From the NCBI RefSeq assembly GCF_004010195.1, contig NC_057751.1:13026322-13090321 (forward strand): DNA of 64,000 nt, given 5' to 3'. Both the position numbers and the translations under genes were made by a program. The notes below the pieces were generated by a model that saw only the letters and a list, made by a program, of their open reading frames with translations, was not told the DNA's origin and made no database searches. The stretch comes from Chiloscyllium plagiosum (taxonomy: Eukaryota). Shown here one piece after another: positions 27,075 through 57,300 of the stretch; the first letter of the stretch is position 1; each line of letters begins with the position of its first letter.

Positions 27075-27600
27075 AGATGCTGGAAATAATAAGCAAAGTC
27101 AGAGATTGCTGGAAATACTCAGCAGGGTTGGCAGCATCTGACCCTGAGCTTTCAGTTGGCTGCCATTTCAACACACCACCTTATTCCCTGACAAACATCC
27201 CTGTCTCAGGCTTGCTGCAGTGCTCCAGTGAAGCTCAGTGCAAGCTGAAAGAACAACATCTCATTTTCCACTTGGGCATCCTGCAATCTTCTGGACTCAA
27301 TGTTGAATTCAATAATTTTGGACATTGAGCAGTTTCTCCCATGTTCTTATCCCAATGGCTACACACAAAGTCTTGCCCTCACATGGGCTGCTACCACAAA
27401 CCACCCATTGTTAGCCACTAATGGTCACCATTAGCAGCTATTCATTCTCCCAGGCTGACCTTTACCCATTCCTTTGTCTGACAAATCACTGTTCTCTCCC
27501 TCTGGGTTCCATCTTCAGCAACTGTTTACGTCTCCGCCTTCCCGCCATCTTCAGTATATATGTTTCTGTTTCTGATTTCCAGCATCTGCTGTCCTTCAGT
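27075..27600 (+). mobile_element. Penelope-like element fragment (GIY-YIG endonuclease C-terminus and 3' region)
   Basis: VGCHFN...KLKEQHLIFHLGILQSSGLNVEFNNF. Related gatgctgga terminal motifs near 6330, 8740, 9860, 11650, 41320, 42160, 52230 and 62120. Confidence 0.7.
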
Positions 27601-28026
27601 TTATTTTGCATATTGAGAAAGGATACTTTTGCATATTGAGAAAGATAGCCAACTTTGGGCTTCTCACTTATTGTCTTAGCATTCACTCCCTTTGTGCCTA
27701 TTTCTATGCTCAAAGTATCTCTGCCTTGCCTTCCCTTTTTGTGCTTGACTCCCTCATCTGGAGCTAATAAGTTGCAAGTATTTCTAATTTGCCTTGCCTT
27801 TTTAGCGCAGCCACAAAGCCAGAAGGCTTGTTATGGTTGTCAGCAGTGATTTGTCAAGAGGATGAAAGTGTCGCTGTATGTCACTGTGCTACATCAGCCT
27901 GAAACCTACACCATGTGCCAGCAGCTTATGTGACAAACACACTGGAAGTGCTTCAACTAAACAGCCATGTCTCAAAGTCTAAGGGAAACAGTCCTCAGTC
28001 GGGTTCAGAGAGACAAGGAATCAAGG

Positions 28027-29088: not shown

Positions 29089-30280
29089 ATTGGATTCATT
29101 TTGTTCTGCTGCAATGACCTTTTAAAGATAGAACTGGTGTCAGGAATCCTGAGATGGCCCCGCAACAGTGAATGCTTCTGGGTCAAGTGGTCTGCCTGAG
29201 GGCCGTGATACCTAGTTGGCAAGATGACTGTAGAACAATAGCACAAGCAAGTCCTTTTGGCCTCAAAGAATCCTTCATGAAAATCAATGAAAATGACACA
29301 TCGCCAACCTCTGGTAAAATTCAGCCCGTTGTTTCTTTCCAATCTCCAGCACACTGTCAGATAGTGCATTGTACAGAGCAGAACCCAGTACCTTACACAA
29401 TACCGATCCAATGCCTTACACTCCTCACCTAGGGGATTGTCTGCCAGCAACTACTCTGTTGTGTGGAACTCACTACCACAGGGAATAGTTGAAGCAAACA
29501 ATTGATGGGAGTTGAAAGGTAATGAAGAATGGGAGGAGGTTCGAGTGAAGCAGGAATGCTGATATTATCTGTAACTGCAGTGCATATTCTGTACTGTTAA
29601 ATATTTCAAGAGTTACCATTATAGGACCTTGTTTCAGCATTTCATGTGAAGTACAAAATCTTTTGAAATTTTTGACTTCCCAATGGTAGGCTCTACCAGC
29701 CGAGTCAGTGATTATTTGCCTGTGATTAGTTAGGGTATATATCATTTCTACCTTTCCAGGAAGAAAGTATGACCAAGGGACTCTTAATTGTACCCTGAGT
29801 CATGGGTCTGAACAATCAGCCACAATAAAATTTATTGTCTGAAATAGCTGCAAATTTCTACATATTAGAAACATGAGCAACACACTTCATTGGATTTAGT
29901 TACAGCTCTGATAGTGAAACTCAAGAGAGGTCAACAACGGTCTCATGAAGGCTTATCCATGAGATGTTTGCCTTATGTGTTGCTTACGCCTAGCACCAAG
30001 ACACAAAGCATCATGTCAGATCCACAACAAAATCAAGGCAATCTGTAAGTCACATCAATCCCTGGAACAAGGCATTTCAAATCATGCAACACAAATAATC
30101 TTATCATGAGTTCTCATGTGAGAAATATGGTCCCAGGACATTTCAGCACACCTTTTACAGATTAGAAATTGAGTCTTTGTCCTTTTTAACCTCTGTGCAC
30201 TGTTTGCACTTGCTATTGAAACATCTGCTGAATGCATTAATTCTTTCGTTTCAACTTCATTGAAATTGTTCTTATTCAGA

Positions 30281-30341
30281 ATGGATTATGAAAGGGGAGT
30301 GGGGCATCCAAGGAGAAGATATGATGATGAAGAGGAGGAGG
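30281..30341 (+). CDS. SLC4A5: SLC4A5 putative first coding exon: [20 protein letters not shown](D)
   Basis: Acceptor cttattcag|A ATG (exon starts at 30280) and donor G|gtaagt. Phase 1 fits the next exon. Resembles NBCe1-B ..DRGASFLKHVCDEEEVE. Confidence 0.8.
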
Positions 30342-33300
30342 GTAAGTAAAATAAAGTGCAATTTAAGAGATACACCCAATGCGTCACTGAGTTCCTTTAA
30401 GATGGAAGGTATCAGATTTGATCTCTGGGTAGTACTGGTAGTTCACTGGTCTCAGGGCAATAGTTCTGCTGGTCTGAGCTTTCTCAAGTTAGCTGAAAGA
30501 TATGAATCATTCAGTCAGTAAGGTGGCTACATTTGACTGAAATCCAATGAATGCTGCCGGGAAGTATCTGTGTGCAAACTCCATCTAAATCAAATCAGAG
30601 CCCAACAGCCTTCTGTTTCACTTTCCCACCAACAAAATGATCCATAAAATTATCTGGGAACTGGTTTCCCTGTGGGCCTGACTTAGAACTAGAGTCATCC
30701 GTGATCCTTTTTGGGTTTGGGTTTGTTCTTCATTTTAAATTCAGATGTGCATTCATTAGAAAGTGTTTGCATGATGCACCATGAAATTCTGCTGATGAGA
30801 CTTGTTCCCACATCTTGATTGTGGTAATGTTTCTCAGGGAAGTGCTGGGGCTAAGTAGGTCTGCTTATGAAGACCAGTTGCTTGGCACTTACTTGTATTC
30901 CACTGAGTATAGAGATAAAGGGGTGATCAATTTGAGGTGTTTAAGATGATGAAAGGATCTAAAAGGAAGCTTGAATAAAGTTATTTCCTCCTGTGGGGAA
31001 ATCAGAAAAAAGGATGGAACCTTACAGCAGGGATTGTGTTAATGTTGATGAAATCAAGATGAATGGAAGATGGAGTTAACAAACAAATCATTCATGATTT
31101 ATTTCAATGGTAAAACAGGCCTCTGAGGCTGAATGGTCTTGCCTTGTACCTATTTTCGCAACACTACCATTGCGAATCAGTATCGTGCAAAAGTAGACAG
31201 TTGTAGCACTGTTTCTGATGAAAGAGTTGAATCTTCCCAGAGAAATGAACTGTTTAAAAATGATCCTAAAGATGTCTTTTCTGTCCAGATCAAAACACCA
31301 TCTATGGTGGGATCCCTGCACCACAAGGCTACAGGAGAAAGAGACGGCGAAGGAAATTCTCAGCAAGTCGGGAGAAATTTAGTGAGGGGGAATTGTATCC
31401 CAACAGGCAGTACAGATCTGATACCGAGGAAGGAGATGGAAGAGGACAGACTGCTACAGAGAGAGCCTTTACCAGTAAGTCATTAACAATCTACTATTGA
31501 GATGTTATGGTTCATGTAGGTTTATCACGACTGTGATATTTCATGTGCAACTAGCCAGCCATTTTCCCATCTCTGAAAGTTTATAATGAATATTCAAAGA
31601 AAATTAAAAACGTGTTCAACATTCTTGTGATGTTTCTTTTGATTGCTCAGAGCAGTGGCCAGAGATGAATCGTTAACCTGGACAATACTGTATAGGTTGA
31701 TGATCCTGAATTCACTTCACAAATTCAGTGTGATCAGGTCCAAGGATTCCATTCTATAATAATCAAAACTGAACAGCAGTGTAATCATGTGTTTGATAGA
31801 AATGCGTTTGGCTAGACATTGTGATTTGATGGGATCACCAGAAACTCATCCTGATGCATAAGTGTTGGAGGCCATCAGCCTTTCCTTCCACAGATTCTGA
31901 GGCTAATCACAGAGAATTATATGTTTCTTTCTGTCCTTCTTCTCCCGTAATCTCATAGTTGCCCAGAAAACTAACAACGGCATGATAGCCCCTACCCTGA
32001 GCCCAGGCCCTAAGTCCTTTGCGTAGGAATCACTGACTTGCATTTGAAAGGTCTTAATAAATGGCTGCGTTGGGTTTAGTCCAAGAGCTAAGACTACACA
32101 ACACATTATTCATTGAAACCTTCCCACTTAAGACCAATTGAAACGGTTCGGCCATTCCATCAGCTGGACAGACTGCCTCTACAAGTGCAATTTGGTTTTT
32201 AAAAGTATACATGTTTAAACTGTTTAATTTGTTGTTTTGTTCACACTAGCTTATTCATTTATTTATTTGGGGGATGTGGGCATCACTGGTTGGGCTAGCA
32301 TTTATTGTACATCCCTGATTGCCCTGAATCACCTCCATGAACTGCTGCAGTTTGATGTGAAATCAGTTACAGTGTGACATGAGTTGCTGTACAAAGAACA
32401 TAACATCTTGAAATTAAAACCTATCATGCTGTTTTTAATGTTGATTGTTTATTTTCCTGGCTATTCACAGCAGTGTGGAGATCCTAATCCAAAGGAAAAT
32501 GGACTTAACAACAAATGATTAAACTGTTGCCTGCATTAAGTATGTCTGTTTGATTAATCCAGAACCTTGACTGGCAACAATGATATATGCAGTCACTGAG
32601 CAATGTTGTTCCATGATTCAGAAAATATATTCCACAGCAAAGATCAGGTGAATAAGAATCACTAGCTCAAGATAACCCAATATCCTAGAACAAAGGCACC
32701 GAGGTTAAACTGTGCTGACAAACAATTATATGAAAAATTGGTGGATTCACTCAGGTGAGTTGAAGTGATGGAAAGAGGCATTGTTTTTCATTATTCTACA
32801 TTAAATATTTACTGAATAGATTCCATCATGTGATTGGATGAGTTAAGTAATAAGGGCAATGTTTAATCCCCAGTTTGTGCTGAATCCACTGAGACAGCAG
32901 AGCGAAATGGAATCAGTGCAATCAGCTTCAGATAAGGAGGGGTGATCCCAACCTGGTCCTATGGCTCCTGGAAGCTTCATGCATGAGCTGACAGATCACA
33001 GGGCACTTTGCTGTGGTATTACTCTCCCTATGTGGTCAAGTATACTCCATGAGTGCACTCACTTTGGTGAAATTCTGGCCAAGGAACTGTGCATCAGAAA
33101 GAATCCCTGCTGAAGACAACACTATTATTTTTATCTTAATTATAGGGTACCTTCTCAATAGTCAGGGAAGGCATTTGTTTAAAATGCCCTGAATTGTCTT
33201 GTTTTTGTTCCTCAGACTACGAATCAGATCATTCAGTGTAATGACATACTCAGGTGGAACTCCGAAACACAGTCTGGCGTTATGTCAAATAGATATTCCC

Positions 33301-36300
33301 TCACATACTCAACAATAACGATCCTATACTCAAACTGTACCTGTGACTCCAGCAATCGGCCAGAACTGGGTATACTTCCACAGTATCCAATCTTGGCCCA
33401 TTAGCTATTTTACTTTGGTTTTTGCGCTTGTTTCCAATTTTGTCGCAAGAACTGTGTTGCTGAGCAATGGTTCTGACACATTGCCTGATCTCAGTTGCAG
33501 CCGCACGCCACTTGTGGCTCGACTGCTTACTGGGGTCACACAGGGGTCAAAACCAGCTTCCAGGTCAGCTTCTGATGATTGTGTGTAAAGGACATTGGGA
33601 TTGCTATGTGCTCAGTGCCAGATTCTGAAAGCATAGACAGTCGGGAGGAACTAAAGGCACATTGTTTCCAGTTGAGATTCAAGGTACAAATAAATCTCAG
33701 CATTGCAAATGTTAATCTGTTAACTATTGCCACTCAATGGCCCTGTGCAAGGAATATTTTATACTTAACTCTGTAAGGATCCTAAGCTGCCAGTATGTCA
33801 AGTAAACAGGAACTTACTGCAGCCCATATGCAACATAAATCTGGCTGGCGTTGAAACTTTTATCAGCAACAATTCAGTTATGTAGCATTCAGAACAAGAG
33901 GAGGCCATTCAGCCCCTTAAGTCTGTTCCTCATTCAATTAAATCATGGCTCATGTATACCTCAACTCTATTTGCCCATCTTTTCGCCATGCTTGTTGATA
34001 CTCACACTCAACAGAAATCTCAGTCAGAAACATTCCCACTCCCTAGCAATTTACTGAAATGCAAATTCCAATCAAGGTCCCTGCTTTTGATTCCCAGAAC
34101 AGTTGCTCTCTCCCATTCTCTGTTCCTCTCCTGTCAGATAAGAGGTATCCTAGATTTCTGAACTTTCCACAGAATCCTGGTGATTTCTGCTATTCCTGAC
34201 CAGAGAGTGGAATTATTGAAATAAATGTAAAGCTGTATTCCCCTTCAAAACATGAACTTGGCTTTATTTTGAAAGGAGAGTGGGGAGGAGGCTGACAAAT
34301 TCCCATCCTTCTTGAGTGAATGAAAAATATCTTCGAAATTCTCCCTTAAGGTGCTGGAACTGATAGATGCAGGTACATATTGATTGTCTTTGATTCATGC
34401 TGAAAGGGCATTATTAATGGACAGAGAGAAATAAATATTCACCATTTACTAAACTTCAGCTTCAGAGTTTAAAAAAAATGAAAAGCTTGAATAAAAGATA
34501 AGGGGGCTATTTTAATGTAAAAAATTATCTATTTATTGGGGGCTATTTTTATTGATGCACAGGGGAGCCTTTTAGAAAAGGTTCGGGAATAGTTAAGGTC
34601 AAAGCTTTCTCAGAATTGAAATGGGTAAGCTCTACTGGGTTTGGCATAATCATCAATAGGACTCAACTCAGCAAAGGGCGTGCTATTCCATTTAATCTCC
34701 AGGGCAAGCAGCTCTGTGTAACAGGCTTTGACACACTCTGTAAGGCTGCAGCAAGTTACCCCGAGCACAGACAGGCCTGCTTTTAATGTGTGTGACAAAA
34801 TGAGTGAGAGTGAACCAGGTAGGGTCGAAACCATGGTTTTTGTTGTTGATTTGTCAATTGCTTTTTTTGAGGCCAGGATTGGCGTGTTTGTCTTGTAGCC
34901 ACGAGAGAACTGATGCAATTCATTTTGTTTCACTTTTAACACTTTGTAGACTACAGTAACATCGCTTCATTCAAGGACAGGATATAACTGGGTCATGACA
35001 AAACTATGGTCTTTGCTCTTGTTTTCTCAAACTCTACTTCACAATAGTTGGTTTTACAAATACACAAAGAGTGGTTTCTACTTTGCAGAGGGGGTGTGTG
35101 CCAGTTTGTCGACACTGATGCTGGTTTCTCTCCATGAATTTGGATACAACTGAGATTTTAAGTGGACAAACATTATTTTTTAAGTCTTCCAGAATTTGAT
35201 AGTCTTGTTACTTTTAAACAAAGGCCATGATTTGTTGCACTTGAATAATTTGGTGGTTCTCCCCTTTTTGCTAAGCGAAGACGGCAAGAAGCCAACGTAT
35301 AAACTAACTATGAAAGCTTCCAATCAGATGGAAGAAACAGCACAAGAGCAGATAGCTGTGACTCTGCTTCTCTTGTGCCCTATAAAGCAGGAAAGTAACT
35401 GCCCCTCGCTCAATCTCCTGGCTGTGGAATCAAAGTCAGATGACGGTAATCATTCAATGGATGTATGTAGGCTAGCAATCAAGACCGGACTTCAAATCAC
35501 TATGGCCCATGGTATAGGTCAATCAATGCACGATGAGTGCTAGTGTGTGTGTGTTTCAGCAGCGATGCCTTTCAATTGTTGAAGTCTCCTGACACATATT
35601 GTCACATCAAGATTGGCACTTCAACAAAGGAAGCAAAAGACTTCCAGTGTCTGTGGAGGTGCACTTCACAATGAATCATTGAGGGGGAGGAGAGAAGGTC
35701 AGCGGAAAATGATGAAGGCTGAATGAAACCTCAGCTCATCAGATACACAATAGGGCTGAATTGTACTTCGAGGGGCTGCAGATAGCTGATCGGTTTAACA
35801 CTGTCTTCCCATGGTTTTTACTGGAGGTGGGTACAAAACATTGATGATTCTCTTTGATCAGTTGTTGCATTACTGTCAGAAATTCACTGACAGGTTACAA
35901 TGGAAAGGAATGGAAATCACATGAGAGTTTGCGGATAGTTAATTTGCAAATGAGTCAAAGAATGTGAAGTTGTGCAACAGCCAGAATTTGACTTGCCTTC
36001 CATTGCCACTTTAAGAGCGTTTTACTCGAAGACAACATTGTAGGATTGGTTTGTAACCATAGGAACTGGAATTCCTGCCCGGAAGAATTAGTTACAATTG
36101 CTTTTTAGTCAGAAAGTTTCACTTGCAGTTCAGAAGAACCGGCAGTCTTGGAAATGATAGGTAAATTATGGGAATGAGGACATGACAGCAATGCAAATAC
36201 CGGAGGCATTTAATTTCAGGGATAAAGCAAAAGCTTTTATCTGATTCATGCTGAGGAGCAAAGGGATGGTTAATGGAATTAATACTCTATTTAATGGGAT

Positions 36301-39300
36301 TAACTTCCATCAGCAGAAGCATGCACATGCTGGTGAAGTAAGAGAAAACTGAAGTGAAGCAATGGATTAAATTGTGCCCTTTGAATGCAGGTGGAGTGGA
36401 AATACCTTTCCCAGCAGGTGCGAGGAGAGTAGAGAGAAATACAAAACGCAACTGAGGACAATAAAGGCAAGGATTAGGAACGTTACAAATTATAATGGTG
36501 AACTATTGTAGCAATGGTGGACTATTTTCCAGTTCTGTCAAAGTCAGGAATCAATCAAAGGCCGCATTGTTTTTTGGAGAGATTTATTAGGTCAACTTAG
36601 GTCTGAGGCCAGATAAATGAGTACTGAGTGAACCAGGTATTTTACATCAATTTTCACTTCTAAAGGTGATGGTGTCGCCCTAGTGTAGATGAATTGGAGA
36701 GCTCAAGTGGCTTTAATTGGGGAAACCTCAGAAACTGAAGATTGAGATTGGGATAAATGAATCTGATCCAAAAACACAGGGTGCTGCAGGAAATGGAAAC
36801 CGTTGACTCATGTAACCAAGAATTTGCCAAAATATGCGTTAGCTCCCATCAGATTAGAAGGTTCGTGTGGTCCTATAATTTAAGAAAGGGAAGAAATTAG
36901 ACACTGGCAGTTGTCAGTTTGACATTGGGTAAGCATGATATGTGATTTCTGATCACTTGACAAGGTGGACAGTTGCTTATGTTTCTCTACATTGCTTCAG
37001 ATGGTGTAAGTCCCATCTCACTGACTGAAGTGAATTACTTAAGGAAACATTTGAAATTGTGAATCTTGGCATTCCTGTTGATGTCACTTACCTTGATTTC
37101 CATACATTACTCTTTCATGAAAGTTTATCAAAGATTAGAATTTAGAGGATTGTCAGGCAGATATCAGGCTAGATAAGAAATCTTATGAACAAAGGGCTTT
37201 GTCAAGGGGAAGGATTTGAATGCAGCATGATCATAACTGGGTACCATTACTGGGACATATGCTTTTCACCAGCTTGATCCCTAATTTGGATGAGTGTGCT
37301 ATAGCAACTCATTTCACTGTTAACAGATCATATAAAAATGTACATAATGATGAATAATTCAGATGAAATAATCAGCCAATTTACATAGAGGATGAAGCTG
37401 TCTTTGTGAATGGCATTTGCCCTAAACAATACAAATCATTGTCAATGGTTGTCCCTTGTTTCAAGGATGGCATTGACTGAGGGTAGTGGTGGGTTTCTGC
37501 CAGGGGTCTTCTTGTGACTGGGCACAAGTCAATCTATAGATCATTGGCACATGATGCAGGACACCTCATAAAGTATTGTGATCAGCAGTGCTGTATTAGG
37601 TTTCTTTTATTTCCATTCATCTATCTCTTTACTGAGTTCTTGGAATTCCAGGTGTGATTAAGCTTGTTGGAAAAATTAAAGCCTTGTAGAATCAGCCACA
37701 ATCAGATCAGACATGAACTCACCAAATCAGAGAAGAGGATCAATGGGCCAAATGGTCTAATCCTGCTTTTAATTCATATGTTCATATTCTGAATGATCGG
37801 TAGCAAGCCCTTTCTTGGTCTTTCTGGTCAGTACCTCAGTGTTACAGTGTTCACATTATGTAGTTTTACCCCTTACAGGTGGCAGCAGTGTCAAGAATGA
37901 TTTAGAAATGCAGTGAGGAGAGCAATTACTGTTAGTGTACATGTAGAGACATCCTGGTTTCTCTGAATATGCTCAGACTTTGACCTTTTTTTTTGGTGTC
38001 GACCTGTCAGAGACAAACTGGTTGGAAAATTGCAATTGGCACTGTAAAGTGAAACATTAATTTAAAATTCAGAGGAACACTTACAACAGTGTTAGCAGTT
38101 AAAGCATTTGTTGCCTGCAAATTTCACTAAGATCTAAAACGGTTATGTCCATTGTTCTGTTTACTCTTTATGACAGTAGTGATTGGGATATCTGTTCTCG
38201 ACAACTATAACACTTTCAATCTACATTTTCACTAGCGCATAAACAAAATTTTCATTTGAAAGTAAGCAAATGCAGCAACTCCTTACAGCATTGGATGGTT
38301 CCAGAGTGTTGAAAAAAAATGGACAAGAACCTGAAGAGAAAACATAAATACAGTCATGCAGAGATAAAGTCATATGACGAGTGATGTTGCTCTTTCAGAG
38401 AGCCGGCACAGGCACAGTAGCCTAAAGGCCCGAGTCTGTGCTGAAACCATTTTATTCTAAAGTGAGTATCCCTGTTTTGGAATGGAGGGAAGGCCCACGC
38501 ATTTCCTGGTACTAAAGATATCAAGGGAAAGTGATAAAACAGCAATGAAGTAGAGGTCAGCATGGTTGAACAGTCTGGAACAGCTGAATGACCTACTCTG
38601 CTCCTATATCCTATGTTTGTGTTTTCCTCATTGGATACTTGATCCCCAGTTGACTGGAGATCTGCAGTCCTTGTTTTTACCTGGAGATAAGAAAGAGTTC
38701 AGTGGCAAGAGGTGAATGAAAGAGCTAACAACAAGCTCATGTTCAAAGATACATCGTGATCATGGTTTCTTGCTGGAACACCCTGCTCCCCATAAAAACT
38801 TGACAGCGTTACTCAGACAAGATCGTACTCTAATGTATTTTGCTGCACCTCTCTTGTACACAGTGTCCCCTGCTGCTGAGCGTCTGAGGTACATTCTGGG
38901 AGAAGACGATGATGGCCCAACTCCAACGCTTTTCACAGAGATGGATACCCTGCAGCATGATGGAGTTGAGTTAGAATGGAAGGAATCTGCCAGGTGAGCA
39001 ATGGAAGTTCAATGATGTTTACTTCTATTGAACGAACCTCTGTTATGCAATTCTACAACTTTGTAATTCTAATCACCAGCCATTATGATGGTGAGTTGCT
39101 GTGCAAACAGGCAAGCAGTGATTTGCAGGGTTGCTATCACTGTGTTTGAAGTATACAGGAACCATGCAAAATAAGTAGCAAAAGCAAAACAAAAAAGATT
39201 AATGTCACACAAGTCTATCATCAGAACCAGTTCTCTAAATGGTCCTGAAGTCGGCTAAGACTGTGCAGTAGAACTAAAGAAAATGAAGAAGTGTCCGTTT

Positions 39301-42300: not shown

Positions 42301-45300
42301 TTTTCACTGGAACGACCTGAGTTGCCTTTCTCTGCCACCAGTCTTCCTCCTTCGTATTTGTGTAAGTTACAAGAAGTTCTGTGTAAGTTGTGAAGGATGC
42401 CCACACAAAGCCTTTGGCAGAATAAAGATTTGATGAAAGTGCACCTGAACAGCAATAACGGCTAAATTCATCTAACTTCTGATGAAATGTCATTAATCTA
42501 AACAGTACAGGCATGGAGAATTTCCAGCACTTAGTGTGTCCATATTATCGATGTTAATTGCTTGGTTGAGCCAGTGGGTTGATCCAATAGTTTGGAGGCG
42601 TATTTTTGTTTGTATCTTTGTGCGTTTGCCTATACTTTCCCACCACCCCACAACTGGGGTACATCAGGGCCCAATAACTGTGGTCTAGTGCTCTGGGAGA
42701 CCCACTGGGCATGGGTAAGGAGCTGAGCTGGCCTGCTGACTATTTCCAGCATTCTCTCAATTGTGTTCCTGATTCCAGCGTCAGCAGCTCTTTGCTTTCA
42801 TGTAAACCTTGCTATTGCACTTATGCCAGGGTTTGGGTCACTCTTCTTAAGACTGAGGATGAGTTTCCTTCCCTCTGGTACTGTGAGTCCTGAGGTGAAT
42901 AAATAGACCAATGTTGGATCTGCATACCCTGCTTCTAATGCACGTAAAGTTGTGGACAGGAACTGAACTCCTATTTTTAAATATGCACTTAAAGAACCTG
43001 TTTGAAATGCGTGTGCTAAATCTTTTTTACTCTCCCTTTCAAGATGGGTAAAATTTGAAGAGAAAGTAGAGGAAGGAGGCGAGAGATGGAGTAAGCCCCA
43101 TGTGTCTACATTATCTCTGCACAGTCTGTTTGAGCTGCGGACATGTCTCCAGACAGAGACTGTACTGTTAGATTTGGATGGATATTCCTTGCCACAGATC
43201 ATAGGTAAAACACTGTTTTGTTGTCTTCTGCTATGAAGTGGTTAAAAATCATTCAAACCAAGTAAGTCAGTGCACATGACCTAGAGCATAATCTCTGTGA
43301 AAATGTTTCCAATTGAATGAAAATAATGCAGAAAGCCTTCAAGTTTCTCTCGCTGATCAATGCACCACAACTAACATGATTGTTAATTCTATTAAAAATG
43401 ACACTCGTCATACATGAAGGTTGCCGAATTGACATTCTGAGAAGATTTGGTTAGGTAGAACTCTTCTGCATTCAAACAGATGCCACAGATGGTTCCTCCT
43501 AACAGTATTGGAAATAATGAACAGAGTAGAGAAAGTAAGCTCAGATACAGCAGGATAAGAAGTGGGAAGCTTTGAAACTCAAAAATTAGGAATAGTGCCA
43601 GGAATGCAGTAATAGTTGAGGCATGTTGCCAAGAAGGCTTGTTTGGACCAGTGCACTTCATAATGGAAGATTTAACATTGTGGTGAAAATATCAATGGAC
43701 AGAAACACCTAGAACCATGTCTACCCTCTGAGCTTGTAGGAAAGTTACAGAGGGGTGGAAGGATGCAACTTTGCACACATCATTCCTTATCTAAGAAAAG
43801 AGGGGTCATAGAAAATTTGAAAAGTTTTTTTGTTAGAGGAAAGGGTAGGAATAAAAGAATTAAGCCCATTAATGCCCAGCCATTGCGACAAAAAGATGAA
43901 TATGTCCATGATTACAGATGACATCATTGAGAAGCAAATTGAAGATGGACTTATTAAAGCAGATGTCCGAGAACAGATATCCTACATCCTCCTGAGAAAA
44001 CATCGTCACCAAACCAAGAAACCCATCCATCGCTCTCTAGTTGACATTGGGAAATCATCGACAACATCATCAGGTAAACTAAACTGTATGATGTGTCATT
44101 AATGGCAGGTCCTGAATCAAAAACCAATACTTGGGATGGACTTTATCTGTCTTTTCATTTCTCTGTGATGAACAGTATTTACATTTGGGCTTAGGAGCAT
44201 CATTCTGACTGTTGCTGGAGAAAATTATTTTTTATCAAAACAATCTGTATTAATTCAGGTTTGAACAGCACCTCACTTCCTTCTAATTTGTCACTATCTT
44301 GCCTCACTGATAACCAATACCGTAAATTTAGCAATTCACATAAGATTTGCAGATTAGGTGGACTGGCCATGTTAAATTGCGGTGTAGCATCCATGGATGT
44401 GCAGGCTAGATGGGTTAGCGGGTGTAAATGCGGGGTTACGGAGATGGGATATGTCTGGGTGGGATGTTCTTCAGAGTTTCATTGCAAACTCGATGAGTTG
44501 ATTGGCCGCTTTCCGCACTGTAGGCATCCTATGATTCAAATTGTGCATTTTATGAATTATTTTTAAAGGCGCTGCTCCCAAACATGTTTCTTGGGTGGGA
44601 TTTTATGTCTATTAGTTTCTGAATATTCCATGATTTTCTGTGACTAACTTGTACTTGCAGGAACTTGAGACCATTTCTAAAATACATTGGATTGAACATG
44701 TTTTTCATTGTCAGTTGAATACCTGACCAAAATGTAGTCATCTTAAGGGAAAGGGGCTGCACTTACAGGAATAGGACTAGGTCATTCAGCCCCTTAGTCC
44801 TGTTGCACGGTTAATTTGTGTCAAAAATAAGCTATGCCTCAACTCCATTTGTGAGCCTTTTTACTTGATACCCTGCTTTGAGAGATATCTATTTAACTGT
44901 GTCTTGAAAATTTTGATTGACCTCAGCATCTGCAACTGTTTGGGAAAGAGCTGCAGATTTTTCGTCCCTAATCTGTTGCTATTAGTAAATATGGTGAGTT
45001 TGAACTGGAAAGGGTACAGGTACAAATTGGCTATTTGTCATGTATTCATAGTGAATCATGGTTGGTCAATCTGGCAAGTTTGCTTGCAACTTTGTGCTGT
45101 TTCCAAAAATATCTGACACATGGATAATACAAAGAATTCTGACTGACAGGGCAGTAGGACGTTATGAAGCTCCACCAAACCATGCCAGGGAACAGAATGC
45201 AATTGCTCCCGCTGCTGATTTCCTGATGTTTCTGTGAACACTCAAATGGAAGCACGAGGCAGAAGGATGGCTCCTTCTGGGAAAAGACACTTGAGGGGTG

Positions 45301-48300
45301 TTAATCTTGCCATATCTCCCTTACATAAAAGCAACCTACTTTAGAACAGGAATGGTGGTGAAACTTGTTGCTTGCCAACTGTCATTTTGATGTGTGGAAT
45401 AATGTGGGAAGCTTGAAAAGGAGTAGTTGAAACACACACCATCATTTACAAGTGTATGGTTTGACATCTGTAAAGACAATTTTACATTTCACAAATGTAT
45501 GATCTCCATATCGCTCTTGTTCTGGCATCGTGCACATCCCAATTTTCTTTGCTCCACCATTGGTAGGGATGGCTTCAACTGCCTAGCTTGAAGCTTTGAA
45601 ATAAACACTTCCATGTCTCTGCCTCCCTCCTTTCTCTAAATAAAATCTATTGCTTGGCTAAATTTCTGGTTACTTGCCATATGTCATCTTATAGAGTCAA
45701 AGAGATGTACAGCATGGAAACAGACCCTTTGATCCAACCCGTCCATGCTGACCCAGATATCCTAATCCAATCCCACTCGCCAGCACCCAACCCATGTCCC
45801 TCCAAAACCTTCCTATTCATATACCCATCTAGATGCCTTTTAAATGCCCTCTAGTTCTGGACACCCCGACCCCAGGGAAAAGACTTTACCTATTTACCCT
45901 ATCCATGCCCCTCATAATTTTGTAAACCTCTATATGGTCACCCCTCAGCCTCCGACACTCCAGGGAAAACAGCCCCAGCCTGTTCAGCCTCTCCCTATCG
46001 CTTAAATCCTCCAAGCCTGGCAGCATCCTTGTAAATCTTTTCTGAACCCTTCACAACATCTTTCCGATAGGAAGGAGACCAGAATTGCATGCAATATTCC
46101 AACAGTGGCCTAATCCTGCACAGCTGCAACATGACCTGCCCATTGGCCCATCTGGTCCAGGTCCTGTTGTAATCTGAGGTAACCCTCTTCGCTGTCCACT
46201 ACAGCTCCAATTTTGGTGTCATCTGCAAACTTACTAACTGTACCTCTTATGCACACATCCAAATCATTTATGTAAATGACAAAACGTAGAGGACCCAGCA
46301 CCGATCCTTGTGGCACTCCACTGGACACAGGCCTCCAGTCTGAAAAATAACCCTCCATCACCACCCTCTGTCTTCCACCTTTGAGCCAGCTCTGTATCCA
46401 AATGGCTAGTTCTCCCTGTATTCCATGAGATCTAACCTTGCTAACCAGTCTCCCATGGGGAACCTTGTCGAACACCTTACTGAAGTCCACATAGATCACA
46501 TATACCGCTCTGCCCTCATCAATCCTTCGGTGTAAAATTTGAAGGAAACGCATGTGAAAATGTTTGCAACACGTTGTTGAGTGAAAAGGTACCGTCTCAA
46601 AGCAAGTCGTTGTTGTTATATTTCATCAGTGCTCCAGATGATGCTGGCAACATACATGAATGGGAAAGACAGGTGGGGAGTTTAAGAAGGACTCAATTTT
46701 CAATCTTAGCTGGTGTGAGTTTTCTGGCCCTGAAGAATCTGCAGCCTGGCTGAACCAGAAAAATGTGGCTGGTGTACAAAATGGTGGTTGTCTTATAGAT
46801 GGTCAAAGGTTAAGGCAGCAGCTTACTATGTATTCTGTATTGTTAGAATGCTGGCACTGACAGCTGAAAGGTGAAATACATCCCATTGTCCAATAATAAA
46901 AGATGAGGAGACAATCTTGTTTCATTGCCACGATTCTTTCATGCACACGCATTGCAATGATTCCCTTCCTACTGTTATATATATTGTTTCTTTCCTTACT
47001 AACTGTTTGAATTACCACATTACCTACAGCTCGCAGTCCCAACCGAATCCCTGGCATTGGGACAAACTTTTACCGCTCTACTGAAGACTTGAGACTGAGG
47101 CAGGCTGCCAGTTATGGATGGCTACGTAAGTCACCTATGGAAGTTATCCAGTGACCAGCTAACTAAGATGAAGGCACCACATGTAGCCTACATGCATGCA
47201 TCCTTTCCTTGGTTAATGCCCAGACAAAGTATTCGCCAATAAATTGAAGGATTTCAAATGCCAACTTTTTCTTTTCACTGTCTTCTCAACTCTTTTTTTC
47301 TGTTAAGGTATATCTACGTGCATTCCAAATTACATGATGTGGCTTTGTTTTTTTCCACATTGCAGGTCGTGCTCAAAGCAGAAGCATGAATGACATCGCA
47401 GATACTCCCAGCACAGATCAGGTCAGTCTCAACCATGTGACAATGGATGGAAATCATCATCATGAACTCATGCCCTGAACGTCAGAATTTTCATGGATCC
47501 CTGAAGACATGTAATCTCCTAACACAGATCACAGATTTGTAGTTAAACCAGTAACACTTGCATCATTGTGTTAGCTCATTTTTCCTGACACAAGGTATGT
47601 ATAGTGAGGCAATCCACTCCCTCCTGGGGGCAAAGATTTCAGGTTGCTGTATTTGTCAAGCTGTAGTAAGAACATTTGTAAGTGACCTCAGGTCCTCTAC
47701 TTGTGAAGAAAACCACAAAAAAATTAACTTGAATTGCTTCTCCTGAAAAGGATTTCATGAGCCTTTCCTAGTGTGCAGGGTGTTCTAGCTAAGTGCGTAA
47801 AGAAATGGTTGAGCAACAGGAGACAGAGTAGTAGTTGAAGGGAGTTTCTTGAAATGGGGAAAGGTGACCATTGGTGTTCCACAGGATCAGTGCTGGGGCC
47901 ACTGTTGTCTATGGTATACATAAATGATCTGGAAGAGGGCATTGTTGGTCTAATCAGTAAGTTTGCAGATGACACGAAAATTGGTGGAGTAGCAGAAAGC
48001 ATAGGGGACTGTCAAAGAATACAGGAGAATACATATAGAGTGGAGAGTTGGGTGGGGAAGTGGCAGATGAAGTTCCATCCAGACAAATTTGAGGTTTTAG
48101 GAAGTCTAATTGTAGAGCGAACTAGACTGTAAAGTTCATGAGCACAGAGATCTGGGAGTTCAGGTCCATTGTACCCTGAAGGTGGCTGCACAGGTGGATA
48201 GAGTGGTCAAGAAGGCATATGGTATGCTTGCCTTCATCAGACAGCGTATTGAGTATAAGAGCTGGGAGGTCATGTTAAAATTGTACAAGACTTTGGTTTG

Positions 48301-51300
48301 GCCACATTTAGAATATTGTGCACAGTTCTGGTTGCCACATTACCAAAAGGATGTGGACACTTTGGAGAGGGTGCAGAGAAGGTTTATGAGGATGTTGCCT
48401 GGTATGGAAGGTGCTAGCTATGAAGAGAGGTTGAGCAGGTTAGGACTGTTTTAATTAGAAAAAAGGAGATTGAGGGTGGATCTGATTGAGGTCTACAAAA
48501 TCATGAAGGGTATAGACAGGGTGGATAGAGAAAAGCTTTTTTCCCAAGGTGAGAGATTCAATAACAAGTGTTCAAGGTGAAAGGTGAAAAGTTTAAGGTG
48601 GATACACATGCAAAGTATTTTACACAGAGGGTAGTAGGTGCCTGGAACATGTTGCCAGAAGAGGCAGGCATGGTAGATTAATTTAAGTTGCATCTAGACA
48701 GATGCATGGATAGGTGGGGAGCAGAGGGATACAGATCCTTAGGAATTGGGCGACAGGTTTAGACAGTGGATTGGATCATCTCAGGCTTGGAGGGCCAAAG
48801 GGCCTGTTCCTGGGCTGTAAATTTTCTTTGTTCTTTGTTCTTTGAGCCCTGCTCCAAGTCAGTATGTGAGGACTTCAAATTAAATACAGCAATGCCCCTC
48901 CTGCCCTACTGTTTTTGGTTAGCAACTGGATAAATGGATCAAGGACACAGCATGTGGTGGTAGAATTTGCAATGTTGATGTCATGGTTTACTTGTTAGAC
49001 AAGTAACAAATTATACAATTGATAAATTCCCATGTCTTCCCATATCTGAGGAATTCATGCGCAGTGTGTTTTCTGGGTTGGGCTCTCAAAACTTCCAAGT
49101 AATTAGCAATGAAAATAATGCATAAATCCCATAAAATGTTAACAGCAGCCTTTGATCTTTCACTAGGATTTTTTTCATTTCTTTCACAGGATTGGGGCAT
49201 TGCTGCTGAGGCCAGCATTTATTGCTCATCCCTAATTGCTCTTGGGAAGGTGGTAATGAGCTACAGTTCTTGGAATGTAGGGAGACCCCCAGTACTCTTA
49301 GTGAGGGAGTTGCAGGAGTCTGATCTAGCAACACTGAGGAATGGCAATCTAGTTTCAAGGCAGGATGTGACTTGGAGGGAAACTTGTGAATCACAGTTTT
49401 CCCATCTGCTCCTCCTAGCTGGGAAAGGTCATTGGTTTGGAAGGTGCTGTCAATGGAGCCTTATCAAGTTGCAGCTTGTACATGGGACACTCTACCGGAG
49501 TGAATGCTGAAGATGGTGAATTATCTTGTTTCTTTATTTTGTTGAATGGATGTAAGTGCTGCTGAAGGGTGTTGTTGCCAATTCTTAATTAACCTCGAAC
49601 TGTCCAGACCATTTTGGAAAGTAGTTAAGAGCCAACCACATTCCATTGTAAGTGTGAGTGGATAAGTGAATGAGATGGGCTTTTATAATAATTGATAGAA
49701 TAATAATATTAAAATAATATTATTATTTTATAATAATACAATCATGTTCTCATGGTCACTAGCTTTATATTATGGATTTTATGAGCTGAATTGAAATTCC
49801 ACCCCTGGATAGATTTGAAACCCCCTCCTAATGGCATTAACCTAGATTTTTGAATTATTGATCCAGTGACATGACTACTCACTCTCACATTTCCCCTTGA
49901 AAAGGATGGGGTACTGATGGAATGGCTGCTTTATCCTGGATGGTGTCAAGCTTCTTGAGTATTATTGGAGCTGCACCCATCCAGGCAAGCGGGGATTATT
50001 CCATCACAATCCTGACTTGTGTCTTGTAGATAATGGACTGTGCTGCAGCAGATTCATATTTAGATTTTATCTTTATGTGGGCTTGTGTTGTGAGGGTTGT
50101 CAATACCTAGACTTTCCTTTAAACCAATCAATAAGTAGCCTCCGTTCCCATCCAGACCATCCGATATACTTGTAATGTCTTGAACCTCACAATTTAGCTG
50201 GACCCCTGAAGTCATGTAATCTCCTAATACATATCAGCCAGGATATGTGCATGGGCAGAGCATGCTCACGTAGTTGAATGGCTCATTCCAGTTATTTTGG
50301 TTTCATGAGAGAGGCAACAAAACATTAGAAATCCACATTACTGAGGACAAAAAGTGGAAAGTTTCACTCTGACCCATTTTGCAGATCAAACTACCCCAAA
50401 AGCATTCTCTGGCCCATTGGAGTAACTCTCATGAATGTGTAGAATCACTAAAGGAATTTTTAAAAGTCATTCTTATTGTACTACACTTTAGATGAGAGGG
50501 AACATATCAGTAATGAACTGAAACCTCTCTCAAGAAAGCAGATACCTCTGCAACATCTCTCAGATGGCAGGAGTGATGACCTGCAGTGTGGCATATGTGA
50601 AAGTTCAGACTAGACAGGTTACTTTCAAAAGACAGTTTTAATTTTAAATCTTATAAACTTTCAAATTAAGTCATATTCTCCCTCTGTCTACACAGAGTAT
50701 ACCACAGAAATTAGTCATGGATAGTTGACATAGTGAACTCTTTTTTTGGTGAATTTCATCTTGAACCTTAATTGTACTAACCTCACATTATGTGGAGTAT
50801 GAACATTCACTCAGTTCCTTCACGCTACTGGACTCCAAACCTTCCTTGTGCTGAAGGCAATATTCAAAAACATAAGCATAATAGCAATATTGTGCATAAT
50901 ACTAGAACAATAATTGAACACTGAACACTGAGGTGAAGAATTTTTCCAACACACTCTTGTTGGGAGATGACTGCTTCAAAGCCTGCTGCAAGTGATTATT
51001 CTTCATTTGTGAGCTGAGGCAGAGAGCTCATCAGACAGCAGTGAGAGCAATGGTTCGTGCTTCTGTTCCCTGGCACCGAATGTTGAGAGCAGTTAACTCA
51101 GTACAGTGTAAGAATCAAACCAGGTGCTGTCAGATTTGCAGTAAAACAGATGATCCTTTCATCCATGTTTTAGGAGAACAGTATCCTTTCTCTAAACGAA
51201 GCACAGCTACCTTATTAAATATAAACATGAAAGCACTGATATTGAGTGACAAGAAGAACAGACATGTACAATAACTCAATCTAATTCAACTCAAGACTTA

Positions 51301-54300
51301 TACGAAGTTACTAAATAAACCTATGTTGAATCTACCTGGCATTCATATTGACAATAAACATTTCTTGTGGTGGAAAGGACGATGGATGAGGACTTGCCAT
51401 CTGAGGTAGTTTGGGCTGAGGTTAGGAATAGGAAAGGTTGATTTCCAAAGTTAGTATCTTAGAAAAAAAACTTATAGAAGTGTAGTCAAAAATACCTTCA
51501 AGTTTTATTAAATATGTCACATTTTTGAATTGTTAATCAGATTATGAAGTAGCAGGTTGCCACTGATTGAAATCATGAGGGTGAAGCTTAATTCTGCACT
51601 TACATTCTTGACCTCACACCCAGCTTATCGACCTCACTATGTTGGCTGGCTTAATGAACAATATAGAGTCCAGCATTGGCCAACATCTGTGGGGAGCTAA
51701 TGCAAAGATTTCTTAATTTAATTTGCAAAGTAAATTTGAACCTCAGATACTGTGTTTTAGAATTATAGATTCAGAGATGGACATTCACTGCAAATTATTT
51801 TTTAAGGAGGAAGCTTAGTTCTTAAACAAACTCTGGCTCTTCATTTTTAAGTATCTTTCTCAGAATTTTAGTTTTGTTTTAGTCATGTCGGTAGCTTTAA
51901 CCATGTGCTGGAAAAGTTACTGTTGTTTGCTAATTGTTGGTTCACTTGTCTGAGCATGATGAAGTTCGGAGTTGTGGGGATGGTGGTTATCAGTTAGCTC
52001 AATTGATTGGATGGCTGGTTCATGATGCAGAGTGATGTCAAAAACACAATTTCAATTCCCACACTAGCAGAAGTCCTGTCTTCTCAAACTTACCCCTCAC
52101 CTGAGGCATGGTGACCCTCAGGTTAAACTCGTCATTCCTCATTCATCTCTCAAGTCAGAGCAGTCATCTGCGACTATGGTGACTACTATTATAGGTGAGG
52201 CAATGTAATGAAAACACACAATTAAAAGCATGATGCTGGAAATCTGAAATAAACACAGAAATTTTCTGAACTTCTGACAAAGTCAGAACAGATTTGAAAT
52301 ACTGAATTAGTTTCTATCTCCACAGGTAGAGTTGAGTTTCTCCAGCATTTTTGTGTTTGTGTCACTGCACACAAGATCTTGGAAACTCACCTCAAGTGTT
52401 GAGTTTGGGTGGATGTGAGCACACACATCTTTCTTTGTCGAACTCAGCAATTCACCATTATTTTGTGAAAATCTGCTCAAGCAAGTGTTCCTAAGGGATT
52501 ATTCTTTGCAACAACTTGAGCACTTCGACTGTCTGCCATATTCTGAAAATACAGTGAAGCTCTGCACTATATGTTTGATAATCGGTCTTCCTGGGGACAG
52601 GCAAATTGTGGAAGTAACTGGTCAGTCAGTGAAACCAAAGGTATGAAATACTGAGTTTATTGTTGATGATCAAGAACCACAGTACTTGTTTTCTCCTTTC
52701 TCTCCCTCAGCTCAATAGAAGTCCACTATCCTCAGGTTCCAACTCATATGCCTGTGATTCATTTCAGCTCAAGAACAAATTCAAAAAGAAAATACCTCGT
52801 GACTCTGAAGCCTCAAATATACTTGTGGGTGAAGTCGACTTTCTGGATAAGCCATTTGTAGCCTTTGTCCGTCTCTTGCAATCAACAATGTTGGGTGGGC
52901 TGACAGAAGTAGCAGTTCCAACAAGGTACTGGTGCACCTATAGAGCATGTGGTTGGGCCCTGTATAAAAACAATACAATTGAAAGGGTGTGCTATTATCC
53001 AGGAGCACTTCAAAAATAACATTAACTTTCTGTTTTGAAGCTTTCAGATGAACTGTTGTATCTGCTGAAATTATGAAGGGTTGTAAGTTAATTTCTCAAA
53101 ATTAATTAATTAATTAAAAGTAGTATTATAGACTGACTGTACTTCACCTGATGTGGGTAATCACACGTGTTCCACTGAGAGAATAATCATCTCTTGGCTA
53201 GCTGACAGATGGCACTATTGAACACTGCAATGCTGCTGTTTTAAATCTATCTGGGTCCACTCTACAGGTCAACCGCATGGGTAAAAACCATTAGCTCTCT
53301 GCGGAGATGCATTAAGTGCTGCCAGGCATGATACATATTCATTACAGCTGGCATGCAACTGAAATTAGGAATATACTTCAATTTTCCTTCAGTGTGTTAA
53401 AAAGATTGCATTTAGTGTGGAATGAAGAAAGAAGAACTGGTACTTTAACATTCACAATTTTAATACTTTGATATTTTTCCTGAACAGGTTTATTTTTATT
53501 CTTTTGGGTCCTCAAGGGAAAGGTAAATCTTATAGCGAGATAGGAAGAGCCATGGCAACACTGATGGTCGATGATGTGAGTTATTAAATTAAAACTATTA
53601 CAAAAAGTAGAGTTCACGCTATCATACATTGAAGTTGTAAGGGAAGATGGTTGATAATTATTTACGTTAGCAGAGCCACGATTCTCACTACTGAGCTGAG
53701 AAAATGTAAAGAGCCCCGTGAAAAGATTTATTCAACTGTTAAAGTCCCTTTTGAATTGTGCATCCTTGTGCTTTTTTTTCCTGCTGGCATTCAACTTCTT
53801 GTTTCTTGGTAATAGTTAGAGAAATTTCTCCACTTCCACCATGAAAGGGATTCTCTGATGTAACTTTAGTCAGAGCAAAGTTTCTCCAAGAAAAAGTAAA
53901 GACTTTGGTTGCACCAAAAGAAACTTGGCACTTGATTCTCCTTTGTGATAACATGCCTGGATACTCCTTCCTGTATTTATACATATGATTAAAGCTGCTA
54001 TTTAACTGTCTCCATGGATTGTTGTGTCCCGAATTTATATTGGCCCTTTGTTGTTCTGGGATCCAGCTGTTCAGTGATGTGGCTTATAAAGCAAGAGACA
54101 GAGATGACTTGATTGCTGGTATTGATGAATTCCTTGATGAAGTCATTGTCCTGCCTCCTGGTGAATGGGATCCCAAGATTAGGATTGAGCCACCCAAGAA
54201 AGTCACACCAGCTGAGAAAAGGTATGATTTTGAAAATTGAGGTATCTTTGCTTTCCATCTCCAAATAGTCTCTGATCAAATCGATGAGTTTTCTTCAGAT

Positions 54301-57300
54301 CAAAGATTATCCATTTTCATACATTCTCTAGTCATCTTTGACAATAAGGAACCTGTCCACCTACTTCTGATTTGATCATCTTAAAACAGAGATCAAAATC
54401 AGTAGAAGACTCACGTGTTTTTCCCTCTCTTTCCCACATCTCAACAACAGGAAATCCGTTTACTCTCTGAATGAGACTGGGCAGATGAATGGTTCAGCAG
54501 GTGGTGGAGGAGGAAGTGATGATGAAGAAATGCCAGTACCACATGAACTTGGAGAAGAGTTGATGTGGACAGGAAGGTAGGGAACTGGAGGCAGCACGTT
54601 GGGTTAATGGAGGTTAGAGTAGGTTAGGCCGCTGAAAACAAGAGAAGCCTTTTTGGAGGCTTTGAAGTATCGGTCCATTCATGAGTAATTACTGTGATTA
54701 TGATTGAGTCCTTTTAAAAATTCTCTCATGAGAGAAATTATAGGAAAACATGACAGCAGCTTATGGTATCAAATGAGTGGAAGCTGAATTGTGTCAGGAA
54801 TATGAATGTCCCAACACTGCCAACCTAATGCCACTCCCATCACTGCCCCAACCCAATCTTAAGCTCTGTTTGACTACCAGTTCTGACAGACAACTTATAA
54901 ATTAAAAAAGAAAGCTCAGACTTCAAAAGTCCAAATTTTGAATAAAGACAACATTCTGTATCAAAATATTTCTATCTATTTATCTTTACAAACAGAAGAA
55001 TATACAAATTAGGAGGAGAGTAGAGTAGGTCACATGGCCCCTTGAGACTGCTCTGCCATTTGATGAGATCATGGCTGAGTTGACTATTCCACAAACCTAC
55101 CTCCCATGATAACCTTTCACCCCTTGCCAACCTATCCACTTCTGCTTTAAAAAACCCAAAATGTTAACTCTGTTTCACTCTCCACAGGTGCTGCCTGAGC
55201 TGATGGGTTCCTCCGGTACTTTCTGTTTTTATCTCTGTTCCCATCAGCTTTTGATGATGAGTTCTGAAGATTCACAACCTTCTATCAGAAAAGTATTATT
55301 TTCAACCCTGACTGAAATGGGCAGTGCCTTATTTTTAAATATGATCCCCATTTTTAGATTCTCCAACAAGACTAAACATCTTCTCCACATTTACCTGCTC
55401 AAGAACATTTAGGATCTTATAGGGTTTGGTCATTTGCTTCTTACTCACCTAAACTCCAGCCAGTACAAGCCTAAACTGACCAATCTTTGCTCCAAAGACA
55501 ACCTTACAGGTATTGGTCTGATAAACCTTCTCTGAACTGTTTCCTTATAATAGAGGACCCAAAATAGGCAAAGTACTCCAGATGTGAACTCAACAGCGTC
55601 TTGGAGAATTGAAACATAGCCTCCGTACATCTCTATTCAATTCCTCTTGCAATAAATGATGGCATTCTCTCAGCTTTCCTAATTACTCGCTCAACCTGCA
55701 CATTCACCTTATGCAATTCATGCATAAGGACATTCAGATCCTTCAGCATCTCAAAGCTCTGCAACTTCTCACTATTTCTAACTCAAAGCTCCCCCTGTTC
55801 TGATGATACTTGTAGAAGTTGGTAACCATCATAGTATCATAGTAATAGAAGCAGGAATAGGCCATTTGGCCTCATCAAGCCTGCTCCACCCTTCATTAAA
55901 ATCATGGCTAATCTATCCCTTGTCTCAGCTCCTCCTAACTGCAATATCCCCATAACGCTTAATTCCTCTAAAATGCAAAAACGCATCTAACTGTGTCTTG
56001 GATATATTTAATGAAGCTACCTCTACTGCTTCCTTGGGCAGAGCATTCCATAGATTCACTACTCTCTAGGAAAAGCAGTTCCTCCTCATCTCTGTCACAA
56101 ATTTACTCCCCCTAATCTTGAGCCCATGTCCTATCGTCCTAGTCTCACTCACCAGCAGAAAAAACTTGGCCTCCTCTATCTTATCTATTCCTTTCATAAT
56201 TTTGTATATTTCTACAAGATCCCCTCTCATTCTTCTAAATTCTAATGAGGACAGTCCCAGACAGTTTAATCTCTCCTAATAGGGTAACCCTGTTATCTCC
56301 GCAATCAACCTGGTGAACCTCCTCTGCACTGCCTCCTTCCTCAAGTAAGGTGACCAGAATTGCACACAATGCTCCAGGTGTGGTCTCATCAATACCTTGT
56401 ACAATTGCAACAGAACCTCCCTGCTCTTAAATTCAATCCCACTAGCAATGAAAGCCAATATTCCGTTTGCCTTCCTGATTATCTGTTACACCTGCAAATC
56501 AACTTTTAGCGATTCATGTACAAGCACTTCTGCACAATACATGCTGCAATCTTTTGCCATTTAAATAATACTCTGACCTACTATTTTTACTTCCAAAGTG
56601 AATAACCTCACATTTACCAACATTGTATTCCATCTGCCAGACCACTGCCCACTCACTTAACCTATCTAAATCTCTCTGCAGACCTTCCACATAGTCATAG
56701 AGTCATAAAGATGTACAGCATACATCCTCTGCACAGTTTGCCTTTCCACTCAATTTAGTGTCGTCAGCAAACTCGAATATGTTACACTCAATGTCCTCTT
56801 CCAACTCATTAATACATATATCATGATCAATTGCTGGCCCAACACTGACCCCTGTGTCTCCTCACTCACCACTGATCTCCAACCAGAGAAACACCCCTTT
56901 ATCCCAACTCTCTGCTTTTATTGGTTAACCAGTCCTCTATCCATTCTATATATTCCCTGCAACTCCATGCATTCCTCTCTCCAGAATGAGTCTTTTATGC
57001 GGCACCTTATCGAACGCCTTCTGGAAATCCAAGTATACAACATCCACCTGTTCCCCTCCATCCAATGTGCTTGTTACATCCTCAAAGAAATCCAGGAAGT
57101 TTGTCAAACACGATCTTCCCTTCCTAAATCCATGCTGCATATGCCTGATGGAATCCTTTCCATCCAGATGCCTCACTATTTCTTCTTTAATGATAGCCTC
57201 CACCATTTTACTGACTATAGATGTAAAGCTAACTAACCTACCTGCCTTTTGCCTACACCCTTTTTTAAACAGAGGCATGACAGTTAAAGCCTGAGAGAGA

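Follow-up and report, generated by a model that had tools for sequence, protein, structure and literature searches.

The window analysed here, 64,000 nucleotides of the bamboo shark Chiloscyllium plagiosum (contig NC_057751.1), contains on its plus strand the 5' half of SLC4A5, the gene encoding NBCe2; tblastn with a bamboo shark protein places 14 of its coding exons between 30280 and about 63140. Two exons at the start of this gene encode a charged N-terminal segment that, by alignment, is collinear with residues 1-52 of NBCe1-B, the autoinhibitory and IRBIT-binding segment of that carrier. Judged from homologous proteins, this module is the rule in the jawed vertebrates sampled (fish, frog, reptile, bird), and its decay is specific to the therian lineage. 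The evolutionary part alone, an ancestral segment retained in non-mammals and decayed in therians, is very probably correct, while the reading as a whole, in which the segment would form a working autoinhibitory brake that is probably released by IRBIT, is favoured with moderate confidence.

The start-codon exon (30280..30341, plus strand), placed by splice signals, frame and the C. plagiosum gene models, opens with the ATG at 30281, where the segment-bearing models of this species begin, and encodes a first acidic arm that is short, MDYE, together with the larger part of an acidic run; it ends in phase 1. The codons of this run, DDEEEE (30323..30340), followed by a further Asp split by the intron, are the counterpart of DEEEVE in NBCe1-B, whose role as a motif is taken from PMC7898672. 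The second exon (31289..31474, plus strand; tblastn, splice signals, frame) is 186 bases long, runs from phase 1 to phase 1, and encodes a GxxxP motif, a basic cluster and a mixed-charge tail. Aligned with NBCe1-B, the GxxxP motif (GIPAP, 31309..31323) is a candidate chloride-sensing site equivalent in position to the N-terminal GxxxP of that protein, and the cluster of eight consecutive Arg/Lys (31333..31356) corresponds to its residues 40-48 as given in PMC7898672. The third exon (38864..38993, plus strand) is the first one common to all isoforms and, according to frame, splice signals and a structure model, begins the folded cytoplasmic domain (SPAAE onward).

An AG acceptor behind a pyrimidine tract and a GT donor were found at each of these three exons, and their join from the ATG at 30281 gives 125 stop-free codons in frame. 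At 125/125 residues, the joined N-terminus agrees with five RefSeq SLC4A5 models of C. plagiosum, which are entered under the name electrogenic sodium bicarbonate cotransporter 4-like. The splicing of the first two exons to 38864 is thus supported by splice signals, frame and annotated models, and the claim of an earlier note on this DNA, that shark NBCe2 has an NBCe1-B-like acidic and poly-Arg N-terminus, is confirmed. In the product, the acidic run occupies residues 15-21, GxxxP residues 28-32, the eight consecutive Arg/Lys residues 36-43, and a Ser stands at residue 45. Over all six frames, the window has a single instance of the composite pattern and a single Arg/Lys run of at least eight, and 30 base-shuffled copies have none of either; these counts rule out an artefact or a chance match.

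According to a quick tree of 31 proteins built from the conserved core only, the cartilaginous fish, including P0001, the protein of the close relative C. punctatum, fall in the SLC4A5 clade with a Shimodaira-Hasegawa-like approximate likelihood ratio (SH-aLRT) support of 99, sister to SLC4A4, and the mammals are nested as echidna, wallaby and placentals. The exons of the window match P0001 along their length by tblastn. On its phylogenetic placement, the shark gene is an ordinary SLC4A5/NBCe2 orthologue.

The shark segment shares with NBCe1-B/C (SLC4A4) the order and spacing of an acidic arm, an acidic run, a hydrophobic-GxxxP core, a basic cluster at G+8 and a Ser/Thr at G+17, together with predicted disorder, docking residues on the transmembrane domain, and an alternative first exon without the segment. 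With its G at residue 28, the eight Arg/Lys at 36-43 stand exactly at the G+8 of an NBCe1-B-type cluster, and seven acidic residues stand at 15-21, where the type requires at least two before the hydrophobic core (PMC7898672). For the EDE-type first motif, which likewise needs at least two acidic residues, the candidate is MDYE, which has two in an arm four residues short; its Glu may match the residue before RG, not EDE. In lizard NBCe1-B, as in the NBCe2 of crow, sawshark and stingray, the G of GxxxP stands at residue 32; in the bamboo shark it stands at residue 28 because three to four residues of the first arm are missing from this species and its relatives. That arm (30281-30298) is three to four residues shorter in bamboo, zebra, white and cat sharks than in sevengill shark, sawshark and rays. 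The residue before GxxxP (31306-31308) is Gly in Chiloscyllium and Ile in the records of the other 77 non-mammalian species. That NBCe1-B carries an acidic run, GxxxP and an Arg cluster, as the earlier note had stated, is borne out by the lizard NBCe1-B record P0282, which has the run, VYIGVHVP and the cluster, and by the motifs DEEEVE and RRRRRHKRK in PMC7898672. The differences from NBCe1-B/C are that the shark copy stands on the paralogue SLC4A5, has eight uninterrupted Arg/Lys without His, and has the shorter first arm and a less basic tail behind the cluster.

The partner surface of the segment also appears to be conserved. Docking positions were transferred with a numbering offset of 44 between NBCe1-A and NBCe1-B and were read in P0001, the corresponding exons lying beyond the window. 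Among D853, E858, E860, E866, E875, D924, D938 and F939 of intracellular loops 5 and 6 (IL5, IL6), all seven acidic residues are kept and Tyr stands for Phe. In the AlphaFold2 model, residues 1-84 have a predicted local distance difference test (pLDDT) score below 50 and no secondary structure, a low confidence that is consistent with disorder and is not proof of it. Complex prediction of residues 12-52 with residues 84-1030 of P0432 gave 0.00 twice, a "no answer" that was used neither for nor against the reading, and searches of the PDB returned no NBCe2 or NBCe1-B chain.

The proposal of a protein kinase A (PKA)-type site at RRKFS (31348..31362) is weak. Its Ser, at G+17 of GxxxP, aligns with T49 of NBCe1-B and marks a candidate basophilic kinase site, but this site is species-variable, the pattern [RK][RK]x[ST] being kept in only 7/10 cartilaginous fish; T49 itself, reported as needed for the effects of IRBIT and cyclic AMP, is yet Ala in rat NBCe1-B (PMC4464172) and Pro in the lizard record.

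Residues 1-150 of P0001, used as a query, brought 2628 hits, of which the best 120 were examined, every named one being a non-mammal; the 117 that had both anchors are the basis of the non-mammalian counts. Among these best 120 of 2628, an Arg/Lys run of at least six lies behind the motif in 114/117 SLC4A5 records, and the three without it are isoforms from a single frog, in which Gln has replaced an Arg. With one record per species, the run is present in 77 of 78 non-mammals, comprising 10 cartilaginous fish, 5 non-teleost ray-fin records, 19 teleosts, 18 amphibians, 5 reptiles and 21 birds. All 78 species have 7 to 10 Arg/Lys in the 15 residues behind GxxxP and 4 to 8 acidic residues among the 11 before it, and the Arg/Lys octamer is near-invariant. 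Nine turtle models chosen through their C-terminus lack the exon and were excluded from the motif counts. As a partial check, a whole-protein profile search gave three non-mammalian SLC4A5-like representatives with the exon (P0276, P0396 and P0416), all 3/3 of which retain the acidic and basic runs, those of P0276 and P0396 being divergent and His-containing. An initial homologue search with the second exon alone had found only 4 shark proteins among 21 candidates. A shark-specific trait is ruled out: the shark does keep the segment, as the earlier note held, but this is the state of almost all non-mammalian SLC4A5 sampled and no peculiarity of sharks.

Mammalian records were found independently of the N-terminus, through the C-terminus of a turtle isoform (110 hits) and six clusters. 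The exon is present in 90/140 placental records, and a run of at least six Arg/Lys in 0/90 of these, 0/40 placental species, 0/3 marsupial records and 0/2 marsupial species, so that the erosion claimed for mammalian NBCe2 is upheld. In the 140 placental records, 131 of which include that start, no more than 4 Arg/Lys stand in a row at any place ahead of the core; since no longer run exists there, the suggestion that mammalian isoforms might carry the same cluster finds no support. Past GxxxP, the 40 placental species have 3 to 5 Arg/Lys in 15 residues and the two marsupials have 5, with 1 to 3 and 2 to 3 acidic residues before the motif, respectively, while GxxxP itself is retained in 36/40 placental species. 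Human NBCe2 records read IHIGLPVP, and the next 15 residues contain only 3 Arg/Lys, in agreement with the statement of the earlier note that the human protein lacks the Arg run. The decay is specific to the lineage: sea turtle and gar are identical at 23/26 positions in the module and 79/90 in the core, whereas sea turtle and human are identical at 8/26 and 85/90. Skipping the 186-base exon leaves the frame intact, and several mammalian isoform records do skip it at the same place, which indicates that the exon boundaries are the same.

Compared with the shark protein, mammalian NBCe2-a/-c and NBCe2-g therefore share the gene, the exon boundaries around the segment, GxxxP in most placental species and the existence of brake-less isoforms, and differ in their decayed charged arms, with 3 to 5 Arg/Lys against 7 to 10, and in having mostly His at the position equivalent to F939. 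On these counts, the loss is stepwise in therians, partial in marsupials, which are intermediate, and full in placentals. Monotreme models (5/5) lack the exon and were excluded from the motif counts.

The module is older than the SLC4A4/5 pair to which the earlier note had traced it. The homology to the NBCe1-B segment stands, but human NBCn1 also aligns across the segment, and related segments occur in invertebrate Na+-coupled SLC4 proteins, which rules out an ancestry limited to SLC4A4/5. Among 150 family representatives, many of which are fragments or have nothing similar, the strict pattern flagged four, a bat NBCe2, a pipefish NBCn1, a lizard NBCe1-B and a sea urchin protein; crab, spider, snail and mussel proteins were added by eye, in which a hydrophobic-G-x-x-x-P core precedes a basic tract that is often rich in His, and the acidic arm is weaker. 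On these alignments, the module predates the SLC4A4/5 split. NBCn1, NBCn2 and NDCBE (SLC4A7, A10 and A8) have a homologous hydrophobic-GxxxP core followed by a basic tract and are reported to be stimulated by IRBIT (PMC10111226 and PMC4464172), and they differ from the shark protein in being electroneutral carriers with longer, His-rich clusters. In NBCn1, an upstream DEEAVVD is described as the acidic element that IRBIT needs, and the corresponding arm is shortened in the bamboo shark.

The braking mechanism itself is already known from NBCe1-B. According to PMC7898672, the basic cluster (residues 40-48) binds acidic and aromatic residues of IL5 and IL6 and slows transport the more strongly the higher its charge, NBCe1 activity falls by about 60% with the basic arm alone, and single changes at the docking site have little effect; binding of IRBIT requires EDE, DEEEVE and the cluster together, and the acidic arm serves this binding and not autoinhibition. 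Autoinhibition can be transferred between family members, as the NBCn1 N-terminus grafted on NBCe1 brakes transport (PMC10111226). The reviews consulted list NBCe1-B/C, NBCn1, NBCn2 and NDCBE as IRBIT targets, with NBCe2 unlisted there, and one assigns chloride sensing to GxxxP motifs, the site of NBCe2-C being basally active and that of NBCe1-B needing to be unmasked by IRBIT. Rodent NBCe2-g lacks the segment, as described in PMC4664831 and PMC4507446.

Transferred to the shark, the two exons would encode an ancestral regulatory N-terminus of Na+-coupled SLC4 transporters, whose eight Arg/Lys would keep transport low by binding to acidic and aromatic residues at the inner face of the transmembrane domain, until phosphorylated IRBIT or L-IRBIT bound the acidic and basic arms together and lifted the brake. 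We infer autoinhibition and IRBIT release from the NBCe1-B mechanism, the kept docking residues, the low pLDDT and the NBCn1 graft taken together; by this analogy the shark segment is likely to autoinhibit NBCe2, and release of the brake by IRBIT is, somewhat less securely, probable. An alternative first coding mini-exon, MSESEP (34800..34818, plus strand), splices to 38864 in frame, bypasses the brake exons, and would yield a constitutive isoform like NBCe1-A and rodent NBCe2-g; zebra shark and catshark have the same N-terminus in their annotation. Annotation of a second such mini-exon, MVFTG (35811..35826, plus strand), is limited to a single C. plagiosum model. It thus seems that shark NBCe2 occurs both with and without the brake, like NBCe1-B and NBCe1-A. 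Placental NBCe2, which keeps the hydrophobic-GxxxP core without the charged arms, should by the same logic be un-braked and independent of IRBIT. Shcheynikov et al. in 2015 reportedly saw no interaction of NBCe2-C with IRBIT.

Several points weigh against this account. On the evolutionary side, the non-mammalian set came from a ranking by similarity to the shark N-terminus and is thereby tilted towards carriers, the rattlesnake and the second teleost paralogue are partly diverged, the tree was made by a quick method and has several long branches, and the monotreme models, being without the exon, give no information on timing, so that the first step of the loss is undated. On the functional side, a full-text literature search found no functional data on any non-mammalian NBCe2, and the bamboo shark arm, MDYE, is three to four residues shorter than that of sevengill shark, sawshark and stingray, while IRBIT binding of NBCe1-B needs the EDE motif. 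All-Arg clusters in NBCe1-B give near-complete inhibition (PMC7898672), the NBCn1 segment on NBCe1 is only modestly released by IRBIT, and IRBIT no longer bound an NBCn1 N-terminus into which the basic cluster of NBCe1-B had been put (both from PMC10111226), which means that having acidic and basic motifs is not sufficient.

That failed chimera, along with a first acidic arm that is short in the bamboo shark and variable elsewhere, could instead indicate that the cluster autoinhibits NBCe2 without IRBIT, release coming from phosphatidylinositol 4,5-bisphosphate (PIP2), from phosphorylation of the adjacent Ser/Thr, or from a switch to the brake-less first exon. PIP2 action on NBCe1-B is reported to require the same stretch, a [RK][RK]x[ST] site stands behind the cluster in 74/78 non-mammalian species, and the brake-less exon is conserved. 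This explanation is nevertheless unlikely, as the acidic run is conserved along with the basic one (4 to 8 of 11 in 78/78 non-mammalian species against 1 to 3 in 42 mammals), in NBCe1-B it serves IRBIT binding and not autoinhibition, and two acidic residues in the first motif, the number that MDYE has, are enough for full activation of NBCe1-B (both points from PMC7898672).

Polybasic runs are also generic lipid-binding and sorting signals, and the run could be conserved for membrane anchoring, trafficking or kinase docking with no brake at all, which would suit an octamer that is near-invariant beyond what a charge-count mechanism needs and the report that SLC4 N-terminal deletions can alter surface delivery (PMC4507446). 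Such a role is improbable in view of the order and spacing of all elements, which match the characterised NBCe1-B segment, of the braking of NBCe1 by the basic arm alone and by the foreign NBCn1 N-terminus (PMC7898672 and PMC10111226, as above), and of rat NBCe2-g, which reaches the membrane without the segment (PMC4507446). That mammals kept the regulation, through a first-exon Arg triplet or an isoform missing from the records, is very improbable: a run of 3 or 4 Arg/Lys does occur in the N-terminus of 93/131 placental records with that start, and retrieval of the mammalian records went by way of a single C-terminal isoform and four of their clusters, but the triplet aligns with Arg residues preceding the acidic run in non-mammals and so was retained, not relocated, the homologous exon is decayed in 90/90 placental records that have it, and the same decay marks the N-terminus of isoforms that end in the other C-terminus.

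Within the favoured reading of an IRBIT-released brake lost in therians, a further change can be seen on the docking side. The residue equivalent to F939 is His in 107 of the 113 placental records that have the stretch and Tyr in 6 (25/138 are without it), in contrast to non-mammals, in which it is His in 0/123, being Tyr in 109, Phe in 7 and Leu in 7 (6/129 are without the stretch); His was also found in 0/5 monotreme and 0/3 marsupial records. The His is a hint only, because the records are non-independent isoforms and single site changes had little effect in NBCe1-B. At the position equivalent to D924, Glu is found in 97/113 placental records, compared with Asp in non-mammals. A more extended scenario is offered tentatively, as a possibility and not an expectation: the ancestral jawed-vertebrate NBCe2 would have been autoinhibited and gated by IRBIT, and still be so in fish, amphibians, reptiles and birds, and in therians the step-by-step decay of both charged arms, followed in placentals by the change from Tyr to His at the F939-equivalent docking site, would have turned it into a constitutive carrier that senses chloride through a permanently exposed GxxxP motif.

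The rest of the gene in the window consists of eleven further coding exons (43044..63140, plus strand, approximate bounds from tblastn of P0001 and P0003), which encode the cytoplasmic domain and the first transmembrane part, the gene running past the window. An upstream coding exon for six extra residues of P0001 was sought, with no exact match in the window; a near match to the longer C. punctatum coding start at 22211-22227 has 3 mismatches and no GT donor and may be chance. Contig runs (n=2) cover all 30 bins of the window, and at 27000-27650, 41322-41972 and 45228-46500, in introns, very high contig depth with many joints marks multicopy repeats. Single-cell RNA runs (n=2), sampled at about 2% and 6%, showed no depth over the brake exons, which counts neither for nor against their expression or splicing. 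Beyond the window, one transmembrane-region exon exists in two versions in sharks and other vertebrates (P0002, P0003, P0004 and P0016 versus P0001), in tandem in one model, and these are possible mutually exclusive exons. Among proteins P0001-P0275, SLC4A5 has two alternative C-termini, a form with an ETTL-type PDZ ligand annotated from sharks to primates and another found only in turtles and mammals.

Full-text searches of the literature found no description of the segment in non-mammalian NBCe2, of its therian loss, or of IRBIT regulation or autoinhibition of non-mammalian NBCe2, although figures, supplements and some key papers lay outside the coverage and alignments there could already show the pattern. 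No new mechanism is added here, and the shark gene itself is ordinary, with a regulatory segment of a known kind that is well conserved. The main gain is one of polarity: by this comparison, the difference between NBCe2 and NBCe1 is a loss on the mammalian side and was not there from the start, and this loss may explain why human NBCe2 is the odd one out. NBCe2 is relevant to the pH of the cerebrospinal fluid, to the retina and to salt-sensitive blood pressure, and in fish, frog and chick it may be regulated unlike the human protein, while frog or bird, marsupial and human offer a natural series for asking what the brake needs.

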